A stretch of 63,991 nt of DNA, the filler included, from Stramenopiles sp. TOSAG23-2 (Eukaryota): the NCBI GenBank assembly GCA_900128395.1. It is 3 parts of 3 records of this genome, joined end to end, with 100 filler letters (N's around TTAATTAATTAA, not from the genome) between each part and the next. Parts side by side here need not be neighbours in the genome. Positions count along the whole stretch, not along the records: positions 1 to 23,024 come from LT649497.1; 2 more parts are not named here. The stretch is one strand, 5' to 3'. Position numbers and translations under genes: made by a program. A model generated the notes under the pieces. The model did no database searches, was not told the DNA's origin, and worked only from the letters and a program-made list of their open reading frames with translations. Shown in pieces: positions 10,265 through 29,317 of this stretch; position 1 is the stretch's first letter; every line of letters starts with the position of its first letter.

Positions 10265-10623
10265 GAGGGTGTGTCAGATAGTTCGGTAATAAAATTGCCA
10301 CACAGCGCAGAAAAATACTGAAAATTATTAACAATACGAAGCGTACGAAACATCAAACCAGTGTGACGACGCACGATCGCGTTTTAATTTATATTTTTTA
10401 AATAATACTCGTATGATAATTTTTTTATATATACGAACTTCGTAAAATTAAATGGTTCGCACGTTCGGTACGAATTCATACAATTAATGATATGGAAAGG
10501 TTGATACCATTTTATTTATCTCATTCCCTCGGTATTTCCGTTTAATGGGAATATTGACATGTGAGATTGATGTTATAATGGCTCTCAGTGATTGTGAGCC
10601 TCGTTTTTCTTATATTGATGATA

Positions 10624-12639
10624 TTATGAATCCAGTCCAAGCAGAATCAGTGCTTCGCTTAAAAATTCTTCTCGGCCTTGACTATTAACCAATTTTGTAG
10701 CTTCACGGATAAGTTTCTTCCAATCATTTTCATTTAGTCTCTTTGCTACATCGTTATCCTCACAACATACATCTAGCACTTTCATTTTGCCTTGTGATAG
10801 TTTTTCGAAACAGCCATAGATATAATACCATGCAGATTTTGTCTGCAATATTTCCTTTTCAATATGCCAAAATTCATTTGTACCATCCCAAACTTTGTGC
10901 ACGAGACACTCAAATAGATACGATGGGGGTTTAACATCCTTTTCAACCAATTTTTGTGCTTTCCAAAATTTTAAAAATCTTATAGCACTTTTAGCTTCAT
11001 CAGGAAGTTGGTTTATTGCTTTTGTTTGCATGGGGGAAAATGCTTTTGTCAACCACGGAATTTTATCTTTAGCATTATCTTTTTTCAACTTGTCGAGTAA
11101 TTCGCCCTCAGTCAAAGAAGGAGAAATTAGGAGATCAAAGTGAACCCAGCTTGCTTCTTCATTTACCGTCTCTGATACTCGTAGTTTATGATTAAATTTA
11201 ATTGCATGTTTTGTAACTTCAATTTTATCAATCAACTTGGAATCGTAATAAGTGGAAAATAGTTTTTTCAATGCTTTAGCATGATTTTTCACCCATCCAA
11301 ATTTGTTTTTACTTGTGTTAGGAGTCGAATCTGTGTTGATCATAAGTACCAAATCAATATCAGATGACCATGAATCTTCAGATGACCATAAATCTGTACC
11401 CTTTGCAGATGATCCACCTCTAGGGGTTCTGTCGACACTTGAAAATTCATTGCCTTTGTCTTTAATTGTCACTTTTAAGAAGTTACAAACACTATGGACA
11501 ACTTCATTACACTTGTCGTGATGTACTTTGCTTGGTTTGATCTTGTCAACAATTTTATTAATATTTTTTTTATGGGCTGATGAAATTTCGAAATTTTGCT
11601 TGCGGTGCAAATCATCGATTTTAATTAATTGTGAATTAGCTTTAATATAGCTCTCATACATTCTTAATTCATTCTTTTTAGCATCATACATTGATTTTAG
11701 TAATGCAATCGTATACTTATCAACTAGTTTAAGTCTTTTATCTTCAAGTTTATCAATATCTGTAGTATTGTTATCAACCAAACCAAGAAAAGCGAAATTG
11801 TATGCATGCAATTTGAGACGAGTAGCATTTTTCAGTTCTTGTTCTTTTTCAGAAGTGATACTCCACCACGTGTCAAATTCTTTTCGGCCAACCCGCCTAC
11901 CCGTACAAAAACCGCGAAAAATACGTTTATCTTTTTCATTCATTAGCCAATAATCTGCTCTGTATAGAGTGCAAGGCATATCTTTGCCACCAAAATTTGG
12001 TATAATGTCCATTTTAAATTTTTCGTTTGATGTATCTCCTTTTTTCTTAAATTTTAGAGTTACTTTACCAAGGAAAGATTGTGTTTCAAACTGATGGTCA
12101 TTTGCAAATATATCCTTTAGACTTGTTGGATCTGAAGAAGGGGTTTTGATATTATAGCAGGGACTATTGATAATTTCAACTGATATTAATAGTGATTTAT
12201 CGTCTGCTACGTATTTTTTCACTTCTTGTTTTGATAGAAATTTTTGCCTTCCCTTGTTAGAGTTACTATCAATATTCTCAAAGGGAATAGTGTATGGGCT
12301 TTTAGTACAATCACCATGAACAACACCTAAACGGTATTTGATTTTTGCTTCTTGTTTTGATTCATTCTGGAGAAACAATGACAAATGAGTGTTTTCTCCT
12401 TTACCATTGCCGCTTGGATAAATACTTAAGCTCAATGGATTGCCATAATAATCCAAAAAGGGATAGGTAAGTATTTCTTCTTTCGAATTTTCATCATAAT
12501 TTTCAAGTCGAAACAATAGAACACACCGCGCTTTGTCTGTTTTGCAATCTTGATTAAGCGTGTAATAGTCTAATACGTCAGGAGAGCATTCCATATGTAA
12601 TGCTGGGATTTTCTTTGTTTCCGATACTATGGATACCAT
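10624..12639 (-). CDS. MATH(TRAF)-domain plus OAS/CD-NTase-like nucleotidyltransferase fusion
   Basis: N-terminal MATH signature (LSIYPSGNGKGENTHLSLFL...YVADDKSLLISVEI). C-terminal RGGSSAKGT...SDIDLV, a third Asp in FDLL, and OAS-type KSAIRFLKFWK...PPSYLFECLV. First ATG is at 12639; the open frame extends to 12687. Confidence 0.85.
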   Translation of the reverse strand: MVSIVSETKKIPALHMECSPDVLDYYTLNQDCKTDKARCVLLFRLENYDENSKEEILTYPFLDYYGNPLSLSIYPSGNGKGENTHLSLFLQNESKQEAKIKYRLGVVHGDCTKSPYTIPFENIDSNSNKGRQKFLSKQEVKKYVADDKSLLISVEIINSPCYNIKTPSSDPTSLKDIFANDHQFETQSFLGKVTLKFKKKGDTSNEKFKMDIIPNFGGKDMPCTLYRADYWLMNEKDKRIFRGFCTGRRVGRKEFDTWWSITSEKEQELKNATRLKLHAYNFAFLGLVDNNTTDIDKLEDKRLKLVDKYTIALLKSMYDAKKNELRMYESYIKANSQLIKIDDLHRKQNFEISSAHKKNINKIVDKIKPSKVHHDKCNEVVHSVCNFLKVTIKDKGNEFSSVDRTPRGGSSAKGTDLWSSEDSWSSDIDLVLMINTDSTPNTSKNKFGWVKNHAKALKKLFSTYYDSKLIDKIEVTKHAIKFNHKLRVSETVNEEASWVHFDLLISPSLTEGELLDKLKKDNAKDKIPWLTKAFSPMQTKAINQLPDEAKSAIRFLKFWKAQKLVEKDVKPPSYLFECLVHKVWDGTNEFWHIEKEILQTKSAWYYIYGCFEKLSQGKMKVLDVCCEDNDVAKRLNENDWKKLIREATKLVNSQGREEFLSEALILLGLDS
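11360..11395. repeat. 18-bp tandem duplication inside the NTase catalytic loop
   Basis: TCAGATGACCATGAATCT / TCAGATGACCATAAATCT (17/18 identical), encoding DLWSSE-DSWSSD on the minus strand. Confidence 0.85.
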
Positions 12640-13634
12640 TTTGATCAAATTATTTGTTGTGTCTGCAAATACAGATTTATCCTTCAATGTATGATATAAA
12701 TATTATAAATGTATAGTATTATATATATTCGATTATCAAATACAACAAAATGGTATACTATATATTTGATCACTAAAGATGATGTTGTAAAATATAATAT
12801 GACTTAATTATCAACACAAATGTGAGGGGTTATACAATCGCAGTGCGTATTAAAAATGAATAAAAATCACTCGTTTTACACCAACGTAACTGTTGCTATA
12901 AATGATTTATTCCTTTCACTGTTTTTGCTTCTATCCTTTCACTCTCTTTATTGTACAGCAGCTCTATGTTTTCTATCTAATACAGTATGTTTGTTGTTTT
13001 GTGTTTTGTGTATAATAATTTATGATATTCCTCTTGGCTTTTTTCATAAAAATTAGAGCAATAATTTCCATTCTTAAAATATTTTTTCATAACCGCCAGG
13101 ATCAATAATAGCTATAATGATGATACAGTTAAAGGATAATATCTATGAATTATAAAATACCCTATTTACATATTTATAATAATTATAATAAAATATCCGA
13201 AATAGTACTGATTCAAATGTATCCTTCGAGAGTGATGTTCATCCTCAAGCAGTCCGCATTTTTTCCAGATGCAAATAGCATGTAATATCATTATTTTCAT
13301 AATTGATTTTTGTAAATCACCCCGAAAAGCAACATGAGGAAAAAATGCGTGATTAATAGCATTGACATAGCATCGATCATTTAGCCTTATTTTTTACCGT
13401 GCACACCTTCATAACCAACAAAATCAACCCAATAATACATACTATATACAATGTACAAACGTACTATAAAATATTTTTCTCGAACAAAATATATAACAGA
13501 AATATATTCAATTGTATTACGATTTATAATTAGGTCTAACTACAATTAATATTTATCAACACGACAAATAAAATAATATTTTAACACGACTATTTTTTCA
13601 ATTGCCAGAAAGAGTATTACAATAACAAAAAGGA

Positions 13635-15059
13635 ATGGCTTTGTCAACATTACAAAAAAACATTGTCAACATTTCAAACAAATGCGAAAGCTTGTTTCTG
13701 CTTTCATTAGATTGGGGAAGACCAAAAGATCCACCTATGTCATTAGGTCATTCCAGCATTTTAACGCATATTCAAAAGCGTGGTGTATCGGTGATTTCGT
13801 CAACCTGGTCTACCAACAGTCCTAATTTCTCCATTAATCCTATTTTGGATGATATTTTTATGGCGTCTAGTGAGAATGAGAACATGGACATAGGATTGGG
13901 TATGTTTGTATGGAATGATTCTCCAATGAAAAAGATTATGAAAGAACTTAAAATGAGTAATATGTTTTCTGGTAGAATTATATTAGGTGGTTCACAAATT
14001 AGCTATACAAAAAGTGAAATAGAAAATTTTTATCCACACGCAGATGTTTTCATCAGGGGTTATGCAGAAGAAGCTTTGGCACGCATCATGTTAGCAGAGG
14101 AAAAAAACCCTGTAATAAGAGGTGTGCATTATGCGGGCGAACCCGATCTTGGAATGTCAGCCATTGCAGATTTACGTGAATTACCATCACCTTACCTGCA
14201 TGGAACAATCAAGCCTCAACCGTTCTTACGATGGGAAACCCAGCGTGGGTGTCCATTTAGTTGTGGATTTTGTCAACACAGAGAGTCAGACATATCAAAA
14301 ACACGCCGTCCATTGGATACCTCTCGCATTGAGAAAGAAATAACATTTTTTGCTGAAAATCCAATTATTCAAGATATTGCAGTGCTAGATCCTGTTTTTA
14401 ATTCTGGGCCAAACTATATGGATGTAATGCAAAAATTTGTAGATGTTGGATATACAGGAAAACTCTCTCTACAGTGCCGCATGGAAATGGTAAACGACGA
14501 TTTTCTAGACGTCGTAGACGCATTGAACGAAACTGGAGGCGTTGTTTTAGAATTTGGATTACAAACTATTCATCGCAACGAAGAAATTCACATCCAACGC
14601 CCCAATAATAAAAAGAGAATAAAACGTGTGCTTGCTGAAATGAATCGTAGAAACATTGCTTCTGAGATATCACTAATATTTGGTTTACCTGAACAAACTG
14701 TTGAATCTTTTCAACAAACCATTGAATTTTGTAAATCGTACAACGTATCAGCTATATTTGCGTATCCGTTACGACTACACAGGGGTACACCGCTTCATGC
14801 AAATAAATCGAAGCTACAGCTTGTTGAGTCCACCGATGAGGATGCCAAAAATATGAATCTTGGAGAGGATCATATTGGCCATGTTGTCGCGAGCCCTACA
14901 TTTACGAGAGATGATTGGATGAAAATGGCGCACCAAGCAAAATTATTGGACGAGTATAATGCGCAACGTGTTGAACCAATTCAACATAATGCTATGGGGA
15001 AAATGGCAAAAACATTACAGCAAACATTGTGGACAAACTCCGAGAACAATGATGTGTAA
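13635..15059 (+). CDS. B12-binding-domain radical SAM protein
   Basis: CxxxCxxC in ETQRGCPFSCGFC. N-terminal cobalamin-binding-like segment (IILGGSQIS, FIRGYAEE), plus EFGLQT and LIFGLPEQT. Intronless. Confidence 0.88.
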   Translation: MALSTLQKNIVNISNKCESLFLLSLDWGRPKDPPMSLGHSSILTHIQKRGVSVISSTWSTNSPNFSINPILDDIFMASSENENMDIGLGMFVWNDSPMKKIMKELKMSNMFSGRIILGGSQISYTKSEIENFYPHADVFIRGYAEEALARIMLAEEKNPVIRGVHYAGEPDLGMSAIADLRELPSPYLHGTIKPQPFLRWETQRGCPFSCGFCQHRESDISKTRRPLDTSRIEKEITFFAENPIIQDIAVLDPVFNSGPNYMDVMQKFVDVGYTGKLSLQCRMEMVNDDFLDVVDALNETGGVVLEFGLQTIHRNEEIHIQRPNNKKRIKRVLAEMNRRNIASEISLIFGLPEQTVESFQQTIEFCKSYNVSAIFAYPLRLHRGTPLHANKSKLQLVESTDEDAKNMNLGEDHIGHVVASPTFTRDDWMKMAHQAKLLDEYNAQRVEPIQHNAMGKMAKTLQQTLWTNSENNDV

Positions 15060-15335: not shown

Positions 15336-16490
15336 TTATTTTGATTGTGGCTTAAATTTTTGTTTTAAAACATCATGATATCTTTCTTTCATCTCTGGTG
15401 TGAAATGTTTAGAATTTGGTAAACAATGTCTTAATCTATCGTACAACTCCTTATCCCAACGTTGATGATCTTCCTCCTTCTTACCTTTTTTCCAGTCATT
15501 GCGATATGCATCAATCAATAAATGGGCAATAGAATCTTGATCTGCACCTTTTACTTTTTGACTTGAAAAAACATTATGCAAAGGCAAGTAATGGCTTCGT
15601 GTCTCCAGCCATAAATTACACTCAAATTTATTAATTAAATTTTCAACAACTATTTTATGATTATGGAATACTGCCTCATGCAAAGCCGTAGAACCATTTT
15701 CACGCTGGTGGTTAACATTTATTTTCATCTTCTTTATAAAATATTCAAGTATTTCGTTTCTTCCATAATATGCAGCAATGTGAACAAGTGAATTATTTTC
15801 TAGTGTGTGTTCATGTTTGATATCATAAGGCTCAAATTCTTCTCGAGCAACAAAATTTCGAGATAAATCGACATCTGCTAATTTTAATGATTTTTTTACT
15901 ATTTTTTTTATCTTGGTAACATAGTCTTCTGGACCCAATTCAAGTAGCTTTTTTATTTTTTGTAATTTTTCTTCTCTGTTAGGGCTTTTCGAACGAGCCG
16001 TTTTAATTCCAATATATTCTTTCGACTTATATTTTATACGTACAGGTTGCTCCTTGTAATAGCATTTATATGTTTTATAATCACCAGTTTTTGTTGCCAA
16101 TTTTACCAACGAAGGTGGAATGTCTCTTTTTCTTTTTCTAGTTATATTTTGCTCTTGTTGATGTGATGGCTTTTCCTGATAATTATTATTGTTATTGTTG
16201 CTGCTGTTATTATTATCGTTACTTTTTGGGTCTCGTACAGCGTTACTGTTGTCAATATTCGTGCTATTGTTGCTTACCTCCTCCCGAAACTCAATATCTG
16301 TAATTTCAATATCCTTTGCCTCTGTATCTGTCATGTCAACCTCTGCATAACAAAAAACAGGATCCTGGAAATTTAAATATTTAATCACATCATCACTACC
16401 TTTTTTTCCCTGTGTTTTATGTTGCTTAAACTTATCCTCGATCTTTTTTTCTTGTGATTCCCCCCAAAAGCATTTGATAGGTATGATCAT
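15336..16490 (-). CDS. Ankyrin-repeat protein; paralog of 1000-2049
   Basis: NSLVHIAAYYGRNEILEYFI, NGSTALHEAVFHNH and YLPLHNVF, collinear with the first paralog. First ATG is at 16490; a small upstream exon is possible. Confidence 0.85.
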   Translation of the reverse strand: MIIPIKCFWGESQEKKIEDKFKQHKTQGKKGSDDVIKYLNFQDPVFCYAEVDMTDTEAKDIEITDIEFREEVSNNSTNIDNSNAVRDPKSNDNNNSSNNNNNNYQEKPSHQQEQNITRKRKRDIPPSLVKLATKTGDYKTYKCYYKEQPVRIKYKSKEYIGIKTARSKSPNREEKLQKIKKLLELGPEDYVTKIKKIVKKSLKLADVDLSRNFVAREEFEPYDIKHEHTLENNSLVHIAAYYGRNEILEYFIKKMKINVNHQRENGSTALHEAVFHNHKIVVENLINKFECNLWLETRSHYLPLHNVFSSQKVKGADQDSIAHLLIDAYRNDWKKGKKEEDHQRWDKELYDRLRHCLPNSKHFTPEMKERYHDVLKQKFKPQSK

Positions 16491-17316
16491 ATTTAATATT
16501 ATATATCTGCAACAAAAATACACTATTACAACTACGAGGATTAATAAATAATAATATTAACTTTCAAATGTAAACGAAACAACACGGGACAATATTACCA
16601 TTAGCATACACTGAGGACACAAACATATATATATATATATATATGAGATCAGTTGCTGATGCTGATACCTATAACTTTAAAGGCTTTAACTATTGTAATT
16701 ATTATACAATGAATCAATATTTACTCTTAGTAATAATTATAGCAGTATACTATGTGTGCCTGCCGGGCCTGGTAAAATATTTGGCACTATATATACTAAC
16801 TTCAATAACTACTTTGCATACATATTTGAACTTCTTCTTCTTATTAGATTGAATAATTTTTTTGTACGTCGTATATATATTATTTATGGCATCCGCACTC
16901 TGGCACTCTCTTCCTTAATATTATACAGTATTAATACCCTGAAAGGCCCGATGAGGCTGGAACCCCTGTCCTGAGTGAAATCAATTTAAGGACAGAAACA
17001 GAGAATTTTCACAAAATATTCTGAAGTATGCAATTGGTAGAGTTAAATAAAAGTACCTATCAATATGGCTATATCGAATATCGACATATAGCCTGGATAG
17101 CTGGATAGCCAGATATATAGAATCTGCTTCACACGAGAAATCGTAATACACATTAGCATGTGTGCTGAATATTTTGAAACACCTCTTAAATTTTATACAA
17201 AGTGTATTCGTACAAAAAAGCATTTTTTACTTAATGAAATTGTTTTTTTGAAACTTCTACGCGTACGTAAATTTTTTTATAAAATATTTCGTAAAAAATT
17301 ACGACGTCGTATTTAA

Positions 17317-18955: not shown

Positions 18956-21900
18956 TTATCTTTTTTTTGCACTTCCCGAAGTTTTATGGTATTTTTTTCT
19001 ATGTTTTACTTTGTCTAGTTTGAGGCATCTTTTGTCACAATAATAAACATCTTTGCATTTTGGGCAAGATTCTTTAAGCTGAACACCATTTCCTTCCACA
19101 ACGCAAAATTGTAGCTTCTGTGTAATTTTTGCTTTCTCCGTCTTCATTTCATCATACTCTGCATCCTTCATGATAGGTTGTTTAAGCTGCCAATAGCAAT
19201 GATATGCTTTTTTAATTTGCTTGCATAGCTTTTCTAATTTCATTCTTTCTTTTTCACCTTGTTTTTTTTCCATTGACACTTTGTGACACTTGAAATATCT
19301 ACAAGCTGGACTTAGTATCTCAAACTCTTTTGGATCATCTACACGAATTGTCAATTCCCCATCTGCTGAGCGTTTCAAAAACGGTTCCAAAATACGTATT
19401 TCAGTTCCTTTTGGGAAGCATTCATTCCAATGCTTCAATTCAGACTGGGGAGTATTGTAAAGTCCCAGTTGAACCCCATATCCATCTTTGTCTGTGATCA
19501 ATGTGTACAAACCTTTGCGTTTCATCGGTTCGACGCATAGGAAACCTTGTAGATATTTCCCTGTAGCAGGTCTCATAAATGTTGATATAAGATCTACAAT
19601 CGAGCATGGTTTTAAGTCCATATTATTGCAAACTTTCTGATTTGATTTTTTAGTGATTCCTTTATCCGAATATTGCACCTCTTTGTTATCGCCAACATTG
19701 CTTTTTTTGCCGTAACATGTTAGGAAATTAGAAACAACAGTACTCAAATCAAAATCAAGAGCTGTGATTTCAATATCTATAGCCTTTTGAAAGTAGTGTG
19801 CACTATTAATACGATTTTTGTTCTCGTCTTTCATTCTTTTAGAATAGTTTTTTTCAGAAGTGTATTTACCAGTTATGGCGTTGACACAGCCATCCAATTT
19901 AATTTTTGGGAGCTTAGAACACTGAAGTGAATCAAGTGTATATTTACCTACTAGATGCGAGACCTCGTAAAACACTGTTCCATGATTATTCTTGATATTT
20001 GGAAATTTCATTGGTATCTTATGCTGTTTACCAGAATATGATAAGCAGACTTGTGCCATATTTTTATTGCCTTTGTACATCTGACTATTGCCAATAACTT
20101 TATTATCTTTGAATGTCAAATTTTTACGAATTTTGACTGGCGACGTATCTTTCTTGTTTGCCAACATATACGAAATTCCTGCCAAGTGGTTGCCAAGAAG
20201 TGTACAACGAGTTATTTCGCATTTTCCCCCATAACATGAAATTCCATTATTGCCATTGTTATTTACCAAAGTGTTTCTGCAAATTAGATGCGCATTTTGC
20301 TCATCTGGTGGTTGAAGAACAATGCCGTCATGTTTGTTGTGAATAACTTTACATTCATTTATAAATAAACTTCCAGAGCAACCCATAATGCCCGCTTTTT
20401 GTGTACTGCCACAGTTTTCAAAGATAGAGGATTCAACAACTGCTTTGTCTCCTTCTTCGTATAGCGTTAAGCCTTGTCCTGTACACCCTTTTATGATTGA
20501 CGTTGTTATTTTTGCTGAGCTGCCTTTATATCTAATTTCAATTGCTGGATGTTGCTGACATCCTGATATACTACAATCGATTATATTTGCGAATCCATCC
20601 CCATGTACTAAGACGGCTGAAGCAGGTCCAGAAATTCTGCACTTTTCTAGGCTTATTCTTCCACCATTTTGGGTTGCACAGCTTGCACCGCTACCAAGTT
20701 TTGATATTATAACACAATTTTTGATATTGCAGATTCCATTGTGGCAAAAAATACTGTGTGAGCGATAAGGATTACTCTGGTTTACATTCCTATTTCCTTG
20801 ATTTTCAAGTTTTAGATTTTCCAGAATAATTTCTATATGCTGTCCAGGCTGTACCAACAAATGAAAAATATGACGTTTGTGATTTTTTTTTTTTAAAATA
20901 ACTCGCCCTGTTTTGCTTTCTGATATCTCGCCAATTATTTGTATTTTTTTTATAAATTTAGTAGGAAAATGAGATTCAAAAATTTCTATTGCCTCTTCAT
21001 ACGTTCCGGGCATCATAACAATAGATACTCCTTCGTGTGGCAATTTATTTTGGTATTTCATTGCATTAATTGCATCTTTCAACGATTTATAGTAACCGTC
21101 GTTTTTATCAACTAAAATAACAAAATGTTTAAAAAGTATATCGGAACAACAATGTAATTTTGATATGTCATATTCATTATATTTTATTTCTGGTATATGG
21201 CAACTCGCAGGACTTACAGCTTTACCTATTAAAGCACACGATATCCGTTGGAAATCCAATTGTAAATTACTGGATATAGGGTTTTTATTTAAGAAATGCT
21301 TCTCAATATACATTTTAATAGTTTCACGCCATTGTAAGATAAATCGGATATCTTCATCTTGAGCATTCAGCGAAATTATAATTCTTCCAAGCCTCAAAAA
21401 CGTTTTATAACAAAACCATAATAGTGGCTCCGAAAACACACTTAAATTATTGTGTACTATTAGGCTAACGACGTGTTCTAAGTCAATCTTTGCATCGTTG
21501 AATTTCTTTAATTTAGTACGAGTTAACGAACGGTTTATATAAAGCAGACATAGATATTTCGAATGGCTATAATTTTCATTCTCTTCAATTAACTTAATTT
21601 CTTCACTGTAACTTGCTTCTGCATCCTCGAATTTATTGCTTCTATATAATTTATTCATGTTTTTAATAGTTCTTGCATCGTTGTCTCTATTATTTTTTCT
21701 TGCGAGCAAAAACCTGCCATTATAAGTATATTTTCCAAACTTGCTCTTTAAATACATATGCGCCTGATGTTTTGAATTAATTACTTGTAAGCGGCACTGT
21801 TCGATAGAAATGGGAGAATTTTTGCAATCATCGCAGACACAGTCTCCGTCATAAAAGTGGTAAGCGTATAACATCTTTGGCACGTACCCTAATATAAACC

Positions 21901-22807
21901 ATGATATTTTGCCAAGTGGCGTTTCAAAAAATGGCGATCCTTTATCATTTTTAAATCCGTCCATCCTTCGTACCCAATGTTCAATTCTACAGGGCTTATT
22001 GAAATATTTATTATATATTCGAGATGCAGAAAATGTATGAATTAACTGAAAAGCCATGTCGTATACAGCCTTTTCCTTTTTAAAATCAAAATTTCGACCG
22101 CGAATGCCATCTAATTTATCTTTTGTCACATTAAACCATTTTTCTTGCACTGCATTTAACGCTCTTCCATTTTGGTCAACTATATATTGTAACACAGAAA
22201 TAAACAATTGCATGGATCCGTCAGAATAATAATTACTTCCAGGTTTCTCCATTCGCTGAACTTCAATAACAAGAATCTCAAAGGCAAAAGAAAGAACTTT
22301 CTGCGTTTTTGCGGAACTAATTGCTTGTTTTGCAGTAAATTTAAGCATACGAGCCGCATTTTGAGCAGCTTGGTTATTTTCAAAAGCATTTATAAGTTTC
22401 TCTCCTGGCAATTTGCCATGCTCTAACGTATTTTTAAATACCAAATCAATTTGACCTATAAAAGGTAACTTACACTCAATTGCAAATTTTTTGAGATGTA
22501 CATTATTATACCTCTCTTCAAGTTTTCTCGTTATTTCTTCAACCTGTTCCCGACTTATAGCAACATTTGGGGTATCAATAACCAAGTCCATATCACTTGA
22601 TAACATATAAGTTCCTTTCCTGTAGCTACCACCTATTTTAATCTGCAATTCTTCATCAATGTGAAATTCACGAAGAGTATTCTCCAGTTTTTTTACCTGT
22701 GCTTTGATTTCTTCATCATTCAAAGCATTGACGAAAAAAGTTTTATACACCTTTGATACCTTAAGAAATTCTTCAGCCTCTTCTTTTTTCACTTTCGTAT
22801 TTAGCAT
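18956..22807 (-). CDS. OAS/CD-NTase-like nucleotidyltransferase + TPR + right-handed beta-helix + MYND-like Zn finger
   Basis: IGGSYRKGTYMLSSDMDLVI, IDLV and AARMLKF...SFAFEILV. TPR: NKFEDAEASYSEEI...LYINRSLTRTKLKKFNDAKID. Beta-helix: SLKDAI...MPGTYEE and repeated I..C.I...G units. Zn finger: CPKCKDVYYCDKRCLKLDKVKH. Confidence 0.85.
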   Translation of the reverse strand: MLNTKVKKEEAEEFLKVSKVYKTFFVNALNDEEIKAQVKKLENTLREFHIDEELQIKIGGSYRKGTYMLSSDMDLVIDTPNVAISREQVEEITRKLEERYNNVHLKKFAIECKLPFIGQIDLVFKNTLEHGKLPGEKLINAFENNQAAQNAARMLKFTAKQAISSAKTQKVLSFAFEILVIEVQRMEKPGSNYYSDGSMQLFISVLQYIVDQNGRALNAVQEKWFNVTKDKLDGIRGRNFDFKKEKAVYDMAFQLIHTFSASRIYNKYFNKPCRIEHWVRRMDGFKNDKGSPFFETPLGKISWFILGYVPKMLYAYHFYDGDCVCDDCKNSPISIEQCRLQVINSKHQAHMYLKSKFGKYTYNGRFLLARKNNRDNDARTIKNMNKLYRSNKFEDAEASYSEEIKLIEENENYSHSKYLCLLYINRSLTRTKLKKFNDAKIDLEHVVSLIVHNNLSVFSEPLLWFCYKTFLRLGRIIISLNAQDEDIRFILQWRETIKMYIEKHFLNKNPISSNLQLDFQRISCALIGKAVSPASCHIPEIKYNEYDISKLHCCSDILFKHFVILVDKNDGYYKSLKDAINAMKYQNKLPHEGVSIVMMPGTYEEAIEIFESHFPTKFIKKIQIIGEISESKTGRVILKKKNHKRHIFHLLVQPGQHIEIILENLKLENQGNRNVNQSNPYRSHSIFCHNGICNIKNCVIISKLGSGASCATQNGGRISLEKCRISGPASAVLVHGDGFANIIDCSISGCQQHPAIEIRYKGSSAKITTSIIKGCTGQGLTLYEEGDKAVVESSIFENCGSTQKAGIMGCSGSLFINECKVIHNKHDGIVLQPPDEQNAHLICRNTLVNNNGNNGISCYGGKCEITRCTLLGNHLAGISYMLANKKDTSPVKIRKNLTFKDNKVIGNSQMYKGNKNMAQVCLSYSGKQHKIPMKFPNIKNNHGTVFYEVSHLVGKYTLDSLQCSKLPKIKLDGCVNAITGKYTSEKNYSKRMKDENKNRINSAHYFQKAIDIEITALDFDLSTVVSNFLTCYGKKSNVGDNKEVQYSDKGITKKSNQKVCNNMDLKPCSIVDLISTFMRPATGKYLQGFLCVEPMKRKGLYTLITDKDGYGVQLGLYNTPQSELKHWNECFPKGTEIRILEPFLKRSADGELTIRVDDPKEFEILSPACRYFKCHKVSMEKKQGEKERMKLEKLCKQIKKAYHCYWQLKQPIMKDAEYDEMKTEKAKITQKLQFCVVEGNGVQLKESCPKCKDVYYCDKRCLKLDKVKHRKKYHKTSGSAKKR

Positions 22808-24539: not shown

Positions 24540-25925
24540 CTACTTTAAACAATACAAACCATTTTCTGTGTAATATTTACCTGCTTCTGGAATAAAATAA
24601 ATTTCATCATCATCATCATTACCACCATTTTTTGCATTACCATCTTTAGTTTCATCATTTGTTTCAGAATATTTTTTAAAACCAAATGGTATTGTTGGTG
24701 CATCTTTTCTATCTGTATCATGCATTTGTATATGCAAATGTGGCCTAGGACAAAAACCAACATCGCCACTATTGCATATATGTTGGCCACGTTTCACCTT
24801 CTCCCCTAATTTTACTAAAACACTATTAGCTTGAATATGAACATATTCAACATATTGTCCATCATCTAATTTTAACATGATAGAATTCCATTTATATAAA
24901 TTCGATGCATGAATTCCACCAACTATATTATCTTGTTTTATATCAACTACAATGCCATCCGAGACAGCATAAATAGGAGTATCTACAGGGCATTCTAAAT
25001 CTATTGCATGTAATGTAGCTTTGAAAAAATGTGTAAAACATCCGCAAAATCCTTGTGAACATAAAATAGGTTTTGCATTCATTGCACTGATAGCAGTCGT
25101 ATTATTATTATTATTATTATTATTCATGACCATTTTTGTTGATGATACCGTATTGTTATCATTAGTATCATTCATATCAGTTAATAAATTTAATTTAAAT
25201 GGAAATATATAATTACAATATTTTTCTTTTTCTTTAATAGTGTTCAAAACTTGCTTTCCATTACTATATAAATTTGTAATTAATGGCGAAGTGTATTGAA
25301 ATAAAGATATATCTTGTATATCTGAATACAAATTATATTGATTATTATTATTGTTGTTGTTTACATTATTATTATTATCATCCTTATCATTAGTATTATT
25401 TGTGATGGACATAGTTAACGGTTCAAGATAACATACATCAATTAATTTTCTTGGTTCTAACACAATAACAAATGTTGAACATTCAAAAAGGTTTCCTTTT
25501 GTATCTCTTGCTTCTCCTTTATCCATCGCTTCCATATTTACATTATACAAATTACAGGAAACGGAAATGTAAAATGTTCGTATATTATTATTATGTTTGT
25601 TTATACATGTCAATAAACCACTTTCTGGATCAATTGATATATCTGGCATTTGATCTTCATTATCAACAGTCAAGCCAAAATCTTCTGGAGCAAACGTGTC
25701 AATGCCTACAATCCAATTTGGTGGTTTATTATCATGTATAATATGACAACCTGGAGCAGCTTGTAAGACGAAATTACCTTTTACTTTATGTCGTTGATTA
25801 TTATTATTACCTTTCTTTTTCTTTGATGATTTCTTTTTTTTCTTTTTCTTTTTATTGTTATTAATATTGTTGTTCTTATTGTTACTTGTTGCATCTAATT
25901 TTGCAAAATCTTCTACGACTTGCAT
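24540..25925 (-). CDS. Peptidase M23 (LytM-like) domain protein
   Basis: HAIDLECPVDTPIYAVSDGIV, YVHI, VKLGEKVKRGQHI and GFCPRPHLH (HxH zinc motif). Confidence 0.88.
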   Translation of the reverse strand: MQVVEDFAKLDATSNNKNNNINNNKKKKKKKKSSKKKKGNNNNQRHKVKGNFVLQAAPGCHIIHDNKPPNWIVGIDTFAPEDFGLTVDNEDQMPDISIDPESGLLTCINKHNNNIRTFYISVSCNLYNVNMEAMDKGEARDTKGNLFECSTFVIVLEPRKLIDVCYLEPLTMSITNNTNDKDDNNNNVNNNNNNNQYNLYSDIQDISLFQYTSPLITNLYSNGKQVLNTIKEKEKYCNYIFPFKLNLLTDMNDTNDNNTVSSTKMVMNNNNNNNNTTAISAMNAKPILCSQGFCGCFTHFFKATLHAIDLECPVDTPIYAVSDGIVVDIKQDNIVGGIHASNLYKWNSIMLKLDDGQYVEYVHIQANSVLVKLGEKVKRGQHICNSGDVGFCPRPHLHIQMHDTDRKDAPTIPFGFKKYSETNDETKDGNAKNGGNDDDDEIYFIPEAGKYYTENGLYCLK

Positions 25926-27322: not shown

Positions 27323-29317
27323 ATGAATAATAGAAACAAACGTGGACCAATGAGTATTGTTGTTATTAATTATGAAAATCAAAATGTATATATAACTATC
27401 ATAATAACAATATTATTAATTGGATATTATCCATTGTTTTCAAATTTCATAAATAGCGATGGTTTAGAAATGCTACAATCAGAACCAATCCAAACCGATG
27501 ATATTTTGGCGTTACCGCACCAGTGGACCTTTCTTTCAACATGGGATGACGATGGTAATTTCCTTGAAAATGAAATGATACATAAATTGGATTTTAAACA
27601 TTTACAACAAATGTTTATGGCTGTACGTATTAATGTTTGGGAACCGCTTGGATGGATTATGAAAGCTTTTGTATATAATTTTTGTGGCTTATCCTCAATT
27701 GCAAATCGGATTGCTGCATTTCTATTGCACACTGTAAATACATTGTTGTTGAGGGAATTAATTGATTGGGTTTTGAAGAAACGATTCAATGCACGTTGTG
27801 GCAACAGCTCATTAGTTGGTGCTCTTTTTTTTGGCATTCATCCTTTAAATGTGGAAGTTATTGGATGGCCAAGTGCAAATCCATATACATTATCATGCAC
27901 ATTTTCGATTATATCATTGTTATATTATACAAAACATGTAGATTATAATTATTATAGTAGTATTAATACTAATAATACGAAAGATAATAATAATTCAACA
28001 TCATATTTTTATCTTTACATATCAACCATTTTTTATTTTTTTGCTGTAATGTCAAAAGGTGTTGCATTGACAATACCAATTGCTATATTGGCAATTGATT
28101 GTGCATTGTTAAATCGTCAATATTTACAAAACAATGCAATTGGAGATTTGTTTAAAGATTTAGTTATTCATTGTTTAAAACGTGTTATATATGCAATCGC
28201 GGTAATTATTGCATTTTTTGCAACTGTTATGGCAAATATGGATGGGACAAACCCAATGTTGGATACCATTAAGTTAACAACTGCACAACGTATTATGAAA
28301 GCGTTTTCATGCTTTACATTTTTTATTGGTAAAATTATATACCCAGCATCATTACATGCACATTATCAAGTACATGAGTGGAAATTAGATGTTAACAATG
28401 TTAGTAATGATGTTTTAATTAGTATAATTTTCATTTGCATTATTACATGTATTTGCATAGTGAAATTAAAATCTAATCCGGAACTATTTGGATTTTGGTT
28501 ATATTTCATTGTCATGATGTTGCCTGTTACTGGAATTATACAACATGGTATGATAGCTATGGGTGGGGATCGTTACATGTATTTGCCAATGTTAGGTGTG
28601 AGCGTTATGATAAGTTTTATTTATCATAGTAATCTAGTGCATAATAATGACATGGATGATTTGATTGAAAATGAAGAAAAAGATGAAGATATTAATATTA
28701 TGGAAAATCAGGAAGTCGAAGAGGATGATAGTGATGACAATGAACGTATATATTCTAATGTTAGATCGATGCCTAAGAGTATTGATACAATCTGTTTCAG
28801 TGTGTTGATATTGTATATTGTATTAACGAAAAGACAAATAGGTACATGGCATAATGATATAACGTTATGGACCCACAACACCAAGCAGGATCCAACAGAT
28901 TGGAGAAGTATGGATCAATTGGTAGAATTTTATGTGAAAAAAAATTATGTTGATCATGCAATACCTTTCTTTGATCGTATTGAATGGTATTCTCCACAAG
29001 ATGGTTTAAAAGCGGCGTTACATATGGCAAAGTTTAGCATCTTGAAAGGCAAGACAATGGAAGCATGCCAACGATATCAGGAAGCAGCAGAAAAATTTAG
29101 TAACAATGCTGCATTGTACAATAATTTAGGTGTATGTGCATTGCAAAAAGATAATAGGAAAGTTGGAATGGAAATGTTTACAAAGGCATTGGAGTATGCA
29201 GTAATTGATCGTGAAAAAAGGACTATTACGCATAATATCAACACGTTGAAAGATGATATGGAAAACAATCCGGATGGTAGCAAAAGATATCGAGGTAGTC
29301 ATTCATTGATTTTTTGA
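27323..29317 (+). CDS. TMTC-like membrane glycosyltransferase (O-mannosyltransferase-like) with C-terminal TPRs
   Basis: WDD luminal loop, LFFGIHPLNVEVIGW, SKG and DRYMYLP, multiple TM helices, TPR ALYNNLGVCAL. Confidence 0.82.
   Translation: MNNRNKRGPMSIVVINYENQNVYITIIITILLIGYYPLFSNFINSDGLEMLQSEPIQTDDILALPHQWTFLSTWDDDGNFLENEMIHKLDFKHLQQMFMAVRINVWEPLGWIMKAFVYNFCGLSSIANRIAAFLLHTVNTLLLRELIDWVLKKRFNARCGNSSLVGALFFGIHPLNVEVIGWPSANPYTLSCTFSIISLLYYTKHVDYNYYSSINTNNTKDNNNSTSYFYLYISTIFYFFAVMSKGVALTIPIAILAIDCALLNRQYLQNNAIGDLFKDLVIHCLKRVIYAIAVIIAFFATVMANMDGTNPMLDTIKLTTAQRIMKAFSCFTFFIGKIIYPASLHAHYQVHEWKLDVNNVSNDVLISIIFICIITCICIVKLKSNPELFGFWLYFIVMMLPVTGIIQHGMIAMGGDRYMYLPMLGVSVMISFIYHSNLVHNNDMDDLIENEEKDEDINIMENQEVEEDDSDDNERIYSNVRSMPKSIDTICFSVLILYIVLTKRQIGTWHNDITLWTHNTKQDPTDWRSMDQLVEFYVKKNYVDHAIPFFDRIEWYSPQDGLKAALHMAKFSILKGKTMEACQRYQEAAEKFSNNAALYNNLGVCALQKDNRKVGMEMFTKALEYAVIDREKRTITHNINTLKDDMENNPDGSKRYRGSHSLIF

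Follow-up and report, generated by a model that had tools for sequence, protein, structure and literature searches.

A predicted TRAF-type MATH domain joined in one chain to an OAS-like nucleotidyltransferase in a stramenopile

A stretch of 63,991 nucleotides, filler included, from Stramenopiles sp. TOSAG23-2 (assembly GCA_900128395.1; three parts of three records joined end to end) was analyzed and is referred to here as the window. Its first part, from record LT649497.1, carries a gene for a protein of 671 residues in which a predicted TRAF-type MATH domain is joined to a nucleotidyltransferase (NTase) resembling the oligoadenylate synthases (OAS). The gene and its product are called MATH-OAS in the following. 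The combination of MATH with an OAS-like NTase is new within the OAS-like CD-NTases of protists and is restricted to one lineage. Taken as a whole, the protein may be a lineage-restricted protist variant of an OAS-like synthase of nucleotide signals that is docked or regulated by its MATH domain, a reading with about an even chance of being correct.

Domain architecture of MATH-OAS

The gene occupies positions 10624-12639 on the minus strand as a single, uninterrupted open reading frame (ORF) of 671 codons plus the stop codon. Its DNA has a G+C content of about 34%, at which a random stop codon is arithmetically expected about every 14 codons. An in-frame stop is located 21 codons 5' of the ATG and there is no earlier ATG, and the gene model of a 95%-identical copy from EukProt (P0002) uses the same start methionine. 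The MATH-OAS gene is real, intact, and intronless, and it belongs to a unicellular marine eukaryote. The features of the gene and its product are as follows, with residue numbers of the protein and the evidence used or the equivalent residues of human OAS1.

10624..12639, minus strand: whole coding sequence; ATG at 12639-12637, stop codon at 10626-10624, intron not required
12175..12516, minus strand: TRAF-type MATH domain by prediction, residues 42-155; Pfam MATH_2, PDB sequence matches
11770..12159, minus strand: middle region, residues 161-290; Pfam, PDB, hhalign, AlphaFold
11875..11925, minus strand: hypervariable patch, residues 239-255; comparison of variants
11605..11757, minus strand: predicted long helix and candidate coiled coil, residues 295-345; DSSP of the model, heptad spacing
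10627..11574, minus strand: predicted NTase of the OAS superfamily (CD-NTase fold), residues 356-671; phmmer, hhalign, NF041116, AlphaFold, Foldseek, VIA
11395..11418, minus strand: GGSSAKGT, residues 408-415, with the G-S loop and the Lys; G61-T68 of OAS1
11353..11361, minus strand: D427-I-D429, predicted metal-binding DxD; D75/D77 of OAS1
11134..11136, minus strand: D502 in HFDLL, predicted third catalytic Asp; equivalent of D148 of OAS1
10909..10983, minus strand: IRFLKFW (residues 553-559) to PPSYLFE (residues 571-577), predicted helices of the C-lobe; I209-W215 and P227-E233 of OAS1

The MATH_2 profile of Pfam, with a cut-off of 32 bits, matched the whole protein with 37.1 bits and the N-terminal piece alone with 40.3 bits, and the match spanned profile positions 3-135 of 136 (133 positions). 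The older MATH model of Pfam reached 19.7 bits versus a cut-off of 21.2. When residues 1-160 were compared with the sequences of the PDB at an E value of 1 or lower, TRAF1-4 accounted for all 21 of 21 matches, the best with an E value of 1.3e-4, and the aligned core was the conserved strand-loop-strand of TRAF-C, including a stretch YG..L.....NG.G.G.THLSL in the alignment with TRAF4. Because MATH_2 scored above its cut-off and the PDB matches were to TRAF1-4, residues 42-155 are assigned by sequence to a TRAF-type MATH domain, which upholds the N-terminal MATH domain proposed in an initial annotation of this DNA.

The full-length AlphaFold model was based on a 15-row alignment and had a mean predicted local distance difference test (pLDDT) value of 57.3. 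Within residues 22-160 it contained eight strands, at a pLDDT of about 45-54. Structure prediction, which had been named as a check of the architecture, bore out the NTase half, with a predicted template modeling score (pTM) of 0.79, and did not do so for the fold of the MATH domain; because of the low confidence in the N-terminal part of the model, this fold is taken from the sequence profiles.

The nucleotidyltransferase half

The GGSSAKGT, DxD, third Asp, IRFLKFW, and PPSYLFE elements had all been claimed for the NTase, and all are present at the positions listed above and align with OAS1. The four best matches of a phmmer search against the PDB were human and pig OAS1 (E values of 1.6e-5 to 1.2e-4, residues 356-587). 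In the alignment with human OAS1, G408-G409-S410 corresponded to G61-S63, K413 to K66, D427/D429 to D75/D77, R554 to R210, K557 to K213, Y574 to Y230, and E577 to E233. The third Asp was set six residues off by phmmer and MAFFT. An hhalign comparison of the small family with nine OAS proteins (99.65%, E value of 4.6e-25, 245 columns including the C-lobe) paired D502 with the invariant Asp of these nine proteins and brought the catalytic Asp triad into register. In OAS1, D75-D77-D148 are the metal ligands needed for synthesis of 2'-5' oligoadenylate (2-5A) (PMC6019448). By sequence and by model, residues 356-671 make up a complete two-lobed NTase with an intact active site.

An AlphaFold model of the NTase alone had a mean pLDDT of 75.6 and the pTM given above. 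When the full-length model was searched with Foldseek, OAS1, OASL, OAS2, and OAS3 filled rows 1-7 with E values of 6e-11 to 2.5e-9, followed by NF90/NF45, CdnC, cGAS, and CdnD. The template modeling (TM) scores were 0.60-0.64 on the rows of OAS1, OASL, and OAS3 and 0.33 for the two-unit OAS2 chain. The comparison by VIA aligned 270-273 residues with OAS1 at a Z score of 18.9 and a root mean square deviation of 3.4-3.5. The Z scores of CdnB (19.0), ILF3/NF90 (18.8), CdnG (18.3), CdnC (18.1), and cGAS (17.7) were effectively tied with this value, so that the fold is that of the CD-NTase/OAS/cGAS proteins without discrimination of the family.

The fold is also common to CCA-adding enzymes, GLD-2/TENT2, and NF90, and in SPOP and USP7 it is the MATH domain that recruits substrates. 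The NTase might instead modify a macromolecule, by tailing or 2'-adenylating the ends of RNAs or by nucleotidylating a protein recruited by the MATH domain. This is very unlikely in view of the nearest sequence relatives, all of them OAS proteins, and of the tailing enzymes, which appeared lower in the Foldseek results at rank 29 and below.

The relatives of the NTase were collected by searching residues 350-671 among 1.84 billion representatives at an E value of 0.001 or lower. This yielded 21 proteins, 18 of which were scanned with Pfam, while the other three were fragments of 53-110 residues. By sequence, the nearest relatives were OAS proteins. OAS1_C was present in 17 of the 18 scanned relatives, six of these with ubiquitin-like domains, and the 18th was a sister protein, P0003. 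The NCBIfam model NF041116 for CBASS (cyclic oligonucleotide-based antiphage signaling system) cyclases matched residues 359-649 with 50.4 bits, below its cut-off of 200, and it also matched eight of eight tested true OAS proteins with 49.8-86 bits. The OAS superfamily is reported to nest within the bacterial clade C CD-NTases (PMC10732462), and the NF041116 matches of both MATH-OAS and true OAS proteins agree with this nesting. A tree of 18 NTase domains, unrooted and built with no bacterial outgroup, placed MATH-OAS and P0003 on their own long branch with a support of 100 in the Shimodaira-Hasegawa-like approximate likelihood ratio test (SH-aLRT). The language-model neighbors of P0003 were mostly clusters of bacterial CBASS cyclases (0.94-0.91), with a cluster of mollusc OAS at 0.91, which serves as a lead only. 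The enzyme half is filed here as a putative CD-NTase of the OAS superfamily.

Residues aligned with the dsRNA-binding groove of OAS1

The basic residues R195-K199-K205 line the groove of OAS1 that accommodates double-stranded RNA (dsRNA) (PMC6019448). In the phmmer alignment, R195, K199, and K204 of OAS1 corresponded to T539, N543, and E548, so that this basic groove is not kept, and K42, K60, K66, and K206 were kept basic as K389, R407, K413, and K550. In the MAFFT alignment, the invertebrate-type OAS proteins vary at the groove positions as well. The substitutions may argue against classical activation by dsRNA, but weakly so, because these positions vary in other OAS proteins that are not of the vertebrate type.

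The protein could be a classical OAS activated by nucleic acids, with the MATH domain as an output or localization module comparable to the ubiquitin-like domains of OASL; the enzyme half would sense dsRNA or some other nucleic acid, and MATH would link it to partners of the TRAF type or position it within the cell. The three basic residues kept in the N-lobe (K389, R407, and K413) and a net charge of +7 of the enzyme half are in line with this explanation. The characterized structural neighbors are all activated by a nucleic acid or by a protein partner, as given in the titles of their entries. An additional domain at one terminus is also known from other OAS proteins, for example ubiquitin in 6 of the 18 scanned relatives. 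Set against the altered groove, which is weak counterevidence (PMC6019448), this explanation is judged to be unlikely.

Distribution of the fusion

A MATH domain was found in none of the 18 relatives scanned with Pfam, in agreement with the statement of the initial annotation that animal OAS proteins lack MATH. The order of MATH, helix, and OAS-like NTase that it had described is supported, and none of the other OAS relatives scanned has this architecture. Word-index searches, which have a limited sensitivity, were performed in 5.8 billion clusters; the queries were the complete protein, its residues 1-300 at E values up to 10, and a profile of the family restricted to proteins of 651-2000 residues. 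Each search returned P0002 alone, whose identity is 95% across 593 aligned residues. The cluster of P0002 has one other member, P0024, with a MATH_2 match of 45 bits. The sole other fused copies recovered are these two variants, which are 85-95% identical. Pattern scans of JGI metagenome contigs, IMG/VR, and 185,579 prokaryote genomes, also of limited sensitivity, confirmed nothing. A fusion of MATH to an OAS-like or CD-NTase/SMODS enzyme was not found in the literature searched; PMC10732462 and PMC10400998 mention none in their main texts, and their supplementary domain tables may list P0002.

The sister protein P0003, from a metagenome, has 371 residues, is 43% identical, and consists of a short helix-like N terminus and the NTase. 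The protein is without MATH, and an exon encoding MATH may lie upstream of its gene. P0003 keeps the GGS, the DID, and the third Asp, and its G-S loop reads GGSWKKDT. Since the catalytic residues are kept at 43% identity, the enzyme core is conserved over a long distance. The comparison suggests that the helix and the NTase are the older unit, to which MATH was added later.

The middle region and the helix

The region of 130 residues between the MATH domain and the helix, residues 161-290, matched no Pfam family, and its one match in the PDB had a nonsignificant E value of 1.6. A second MATH domain was considered for this region and not shown: BLASTP against the first MATH domain gave an E value of 0.21, and hhalign gave a probability of 0.17% in a comparison of low power, as just three near-identical sequences exist. 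AlphaFold placed four strands and some helices here at a pLDDT of 25-40. Because there was no family and no likeness to MATH, and because the strands had such a low pLDDT, the possible second beta-rich domain mentioned in the annotation is not established, being neither shown nor excluded.

The helical linker noted previously was recovered as a helix at residues 295-335 by DSSP of the AlphaFold model, at a low confidence with a pLDDT of about 45. A crude script found a heptad-like a/d spacing at about residues 303-345, and a similar segment precedes the NTase in P0003. A model of three copies of residues 30-355 scored 0.00, controls were absent, and this result bears neither way on an oligomer.

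Within the middle region, the patch of residues 239-255 is strongly basic in the copy of the window and strongly acidic in P0002 and P0024, with identical flanks. It contains 13 of the 18 differences of P0002 in the middle region. A compensated frameshift as the source of the patch was rejected, since both other frames are full of stop codons.

Presence in RNA libraries and variation among copies

Near-identical pieces of the gene were present in contigs from runs of three studies labeled as seawater or marine metagenome. Contigs from X2, an oligo-dT RNA-Seq library, overlap the gene at 10983-11267, and contigs from X3, a cDNA metatranscriptome, overlap it at 12441-12592. Pieces of the gene are present in two RNA libraries, which is a statement of presence and not of transcription. 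One contig of X2 lacks 6 bases at 11176, in accordance with the two residues missing in P0002 and P0024. The contigs of X4, for which the kind of library is unrecorded, cover most of the gene with a likeness of 90-99%. The intergenic positions 13125-13592 were covered by no contig of the matching runs, and no inference is drawn from this.

Differences from the protein of the window copy were distributed unevenly. The NTase up to residue 587 differed by 2.2% in P0002 and by 4.7% in P0024, the MATH domain by 0% and 9.2%, and the middle region by 13.8% and 16.9%, respectively, mostly in the patch at 239-255. This pattern would fit a variable recognition half combined with a constant enzyme half, and it would also fit a drifting gene.

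Several observations weigh against a functional, MATH-docked synthase of the OAS type. The OAS1_C profile scored 18.6 bits (17.2 bits for the piece) versus the Pfam cut-off of 19.9, and 19.5 bits versus the same cut-off in P0024; SMODS scored 18.1-19.4 bits versus a cut-off of 26.5. The N-terminal half of the model was of low confidence, with a pLDDT mostly below 55. Among the 32 listed X4 differences within the coding sequence, 28 were nonsynonymous and 4 were synonymous; the expected nonsynonymous share is 0.80 (binomial P value of 0.20), which makes the result indistinguishable from the absence of constraint. These 32 were what remained of 40 listed rows after one outside of the coding sequence at 10623, five upstream, and two seen in X1 only had been dropped; the X4 contigs had a depth of 3-5, and 12 further differences exist beyond those listed. 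Finally, P0002 and P0024 depart from the OAS frame beyond residue 587, and about 180 further residues follow. This extension had no match in the window in the case of P0002 and no Pfam family in that of P0024. The 53 residues of the true C terminus are encoded by an ORF of their own, P0005, whose contig of 3705 nucleotides is as long as that of P0024. The arrangement of P0002, P0024, and P0005 suggests that an insertion or a rearrangement occurred in this copy.

The near-neutral ratio of X4 differences, the break after residue 587 with the last 53 residues in P0005, the existence of the short fragments P0004 and P0015, and the occurrence of the fused form in just one cluster among 5.8 billion would all be expected if the gene were a recent product of domain shuffling, specific to its lineage, dispensable or decaying, and now drifting. 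On the other side, the copy in the window has no stop within 671 codons and keeps all catalytic residues, P0003 also keeps these residues at 43% identity, the differences concentrate outside of the enzyme half, and the contigs of low depth may contain errors. Decay is quite improbable.

Proposed function and comparison with known systems

The analysis establishes the order of the domains, the motifs of an intact active site, the fold of the enzyme half, and the rareness of the fusion, and the function proposed here goes beyond these results. If MATH-OAS is a MATH-docked or MATH-regulated synthase, its enzyme half would make a short nucleotide signal from nucleoside triphosphates, like the relatives of this half, and the signal may be 2'-5' oligoadenylate or an oligonucleotide related to it, linear or cyclic. 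The MATH domain would bind a short peptide motif of another protein, and this binding may bring the synthase to a partner or site or may switch it on. The helix would hold copies of the protein together, and the protein may act in a pathway of the defense or stress type. Activation through MATH by a peptide or protein in place of dsRNA, which the initial annotation had favored, may be one possibility, and a MATH domain used for output or localization fits the data equally.

A more specific version makes the MATH domain the sensor: a peptide motif of a pathogen or of damaged self would release or assemble the synthase and give rise to a nucleotide alarm. This is improbable. If it were true, MATH-OAS would combine in a single eukaryotic chain what HORMA and the CdnC that it activates achieve in type III CBASS, and no earlier enzyme of the OAS type would have been controlled by a protein ligand rather than by dsRNA.

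The animal proteins OAS1-3 and OASL, which were the best matches by sequence and by Foldseek, share with MATH-OAS the NTase fold of two lobes, the motifs GGSxxKGT and DxD, the third Asp, and the helices with (L/I)IR(L/F)(V/L)K.W and PP.Y..E, at an identity of about 16-22%. They differ in the additional parts: an N-terminal MATH domain, a middle region, and a helix in MATH-OAS replace the C-terminal ubiquitin-like domains or the repeated units of the animal proteins. In jawed vertebrates, RNase L reads the product of OAS, and this coupling is reported to be no older than these vertebrates (PMC10400998). OAS-like enzymes are reported to be the commonest CD-NTases of nonanimal eukaryotes (PMC10732462), and these OAS-superfamily CD-NTases (Culbertson and Levin 2023, PMC10732462; OASb/OASc of PMC10400998) are likewise cases of an OAS-like NTase in a protist. 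Judged by the main texts of these papers, MATH-OAS differs from them by the fusion to MATH, and it also differs by its position, together with P0003, on a separate long branch of a tree that had no outgroup.

In type III CBASS, a peptide-binding HORMA protein activates CdnC (entry titles; bioRxiv 10.1101/694695). The CdnC structures 6u7b, 6p8v, and 6p80 share the clade-C-type fold with MATH-OAS (VIA Z scores of 17.7-18.1, 17-20% identity). The HORMA sensor is a separate protein, and its operon also encodes Trip13 and an effector, whereas the MATH domain is part of the same chain as the NTase, and the genes around this eukaryotic gene are unrelated to it.

Among the published fusions found, the nearest is from animals, where OAS meets the TRAF and TRADD adaptors through a fusion to TRADD-N, the domain that binds the MATH domain of TRAF2 (Kaur et al. 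2021, PMC8195603). The fused domain is TRADD-N instead of MATH in this case, and a fusion of MATH to OAS is not reported in the accessible part of PMC8195603, which also describes MATH as absent from bacteria. The TRAF proteins themselves share the TRAF-C-type MATH domain with MATH-OAS, which is without RING and TRAF zinc fingers according to Pfam. The coiled coil of the TRAFs directly precedes MATH, whereas the MATH domain of MATH-OAS begins at residue 42 and the predicted helix 295-335 comes after it. MATH-OAS has an NTase as its effector, and the TRAFs have a ubiquitin ligase.

The fusion to a peptide-docking domain of the TRAF type provides a concrete hypothesis for the input or the partner of OAS-like enzymes in protists, and it joins TRAF-C and OAS, two modules of animal innate immunity, in a protist. 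The fusion occurs in one lineage and possibly evolves without constraint, and shuffling of the domains of immune modules is common; for these reasons the finding is only moderately surprising.

Genomic setting and neighboring genes

The window is eukaryotic nuclear DNA with a G+C content of about 26-38% and long single-exon genes. A Pfam scan of 17 ORFs and another scan of 10 proteins identified genes for subunit 7 of the WASH complex, a ubiquitin ligase of the UBR1 type, a P4-ATPase, a TBC RabGAP, PPR, ankyrin, and EF-hand proteins, riboflavin kinase, and PDE-delta. A search for tRNAs and Rfam families across the window found none, and a second copy of the MATH-OAS gene was not found within it. 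The genes adjoining MATH-OAS are those for the TBC RabGAP and for a B12-type radical S-adenosylmethionine (SAM) protein; there is no operon of the CBASS type with an effector or Cap genes.

The radical SAM gene at 13635-15059 on the plus strand encodes 474 residues of the B12-binding type and is arranged head to head with MATH-OAS at a distance of about 1 kb. The protein matched Radical_SAM of Pfam, and the nearest NCBIfam models were KedN5, a ladderane-lipid model, and a PhpK-type model, all far under their cut-offs. The enzyme class looks bacterial, and the window is eukaryotic. An identity as viperin was rejected, since the protein matches models of B12-binding radical SAM enzymes instead. 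Two ankyrin-repeat proteins are encoded near the gene, at 1000-2049 on the plus strand and at 15336-16523 on the minus strand. Neither was accepted as an RNase L-like receptor, as both are without a kinase-like or KEN nuclease domain.

Three other genes of the window may be mentioned. An ORF of 664 residues at 27323-29317 on the plus strand matched no Pfam family at an E value of 0.001 or lower. A protein of 461 residues with Peptidase_M23 is encoded at 24540-25925 on the minus strand, and one of 1283 residues with a region of right-handed beta-helix at 18956-22807, also on the minus strand. The classes of the latter two proteins are commoner in bacteria, and both genes may have been acquired.

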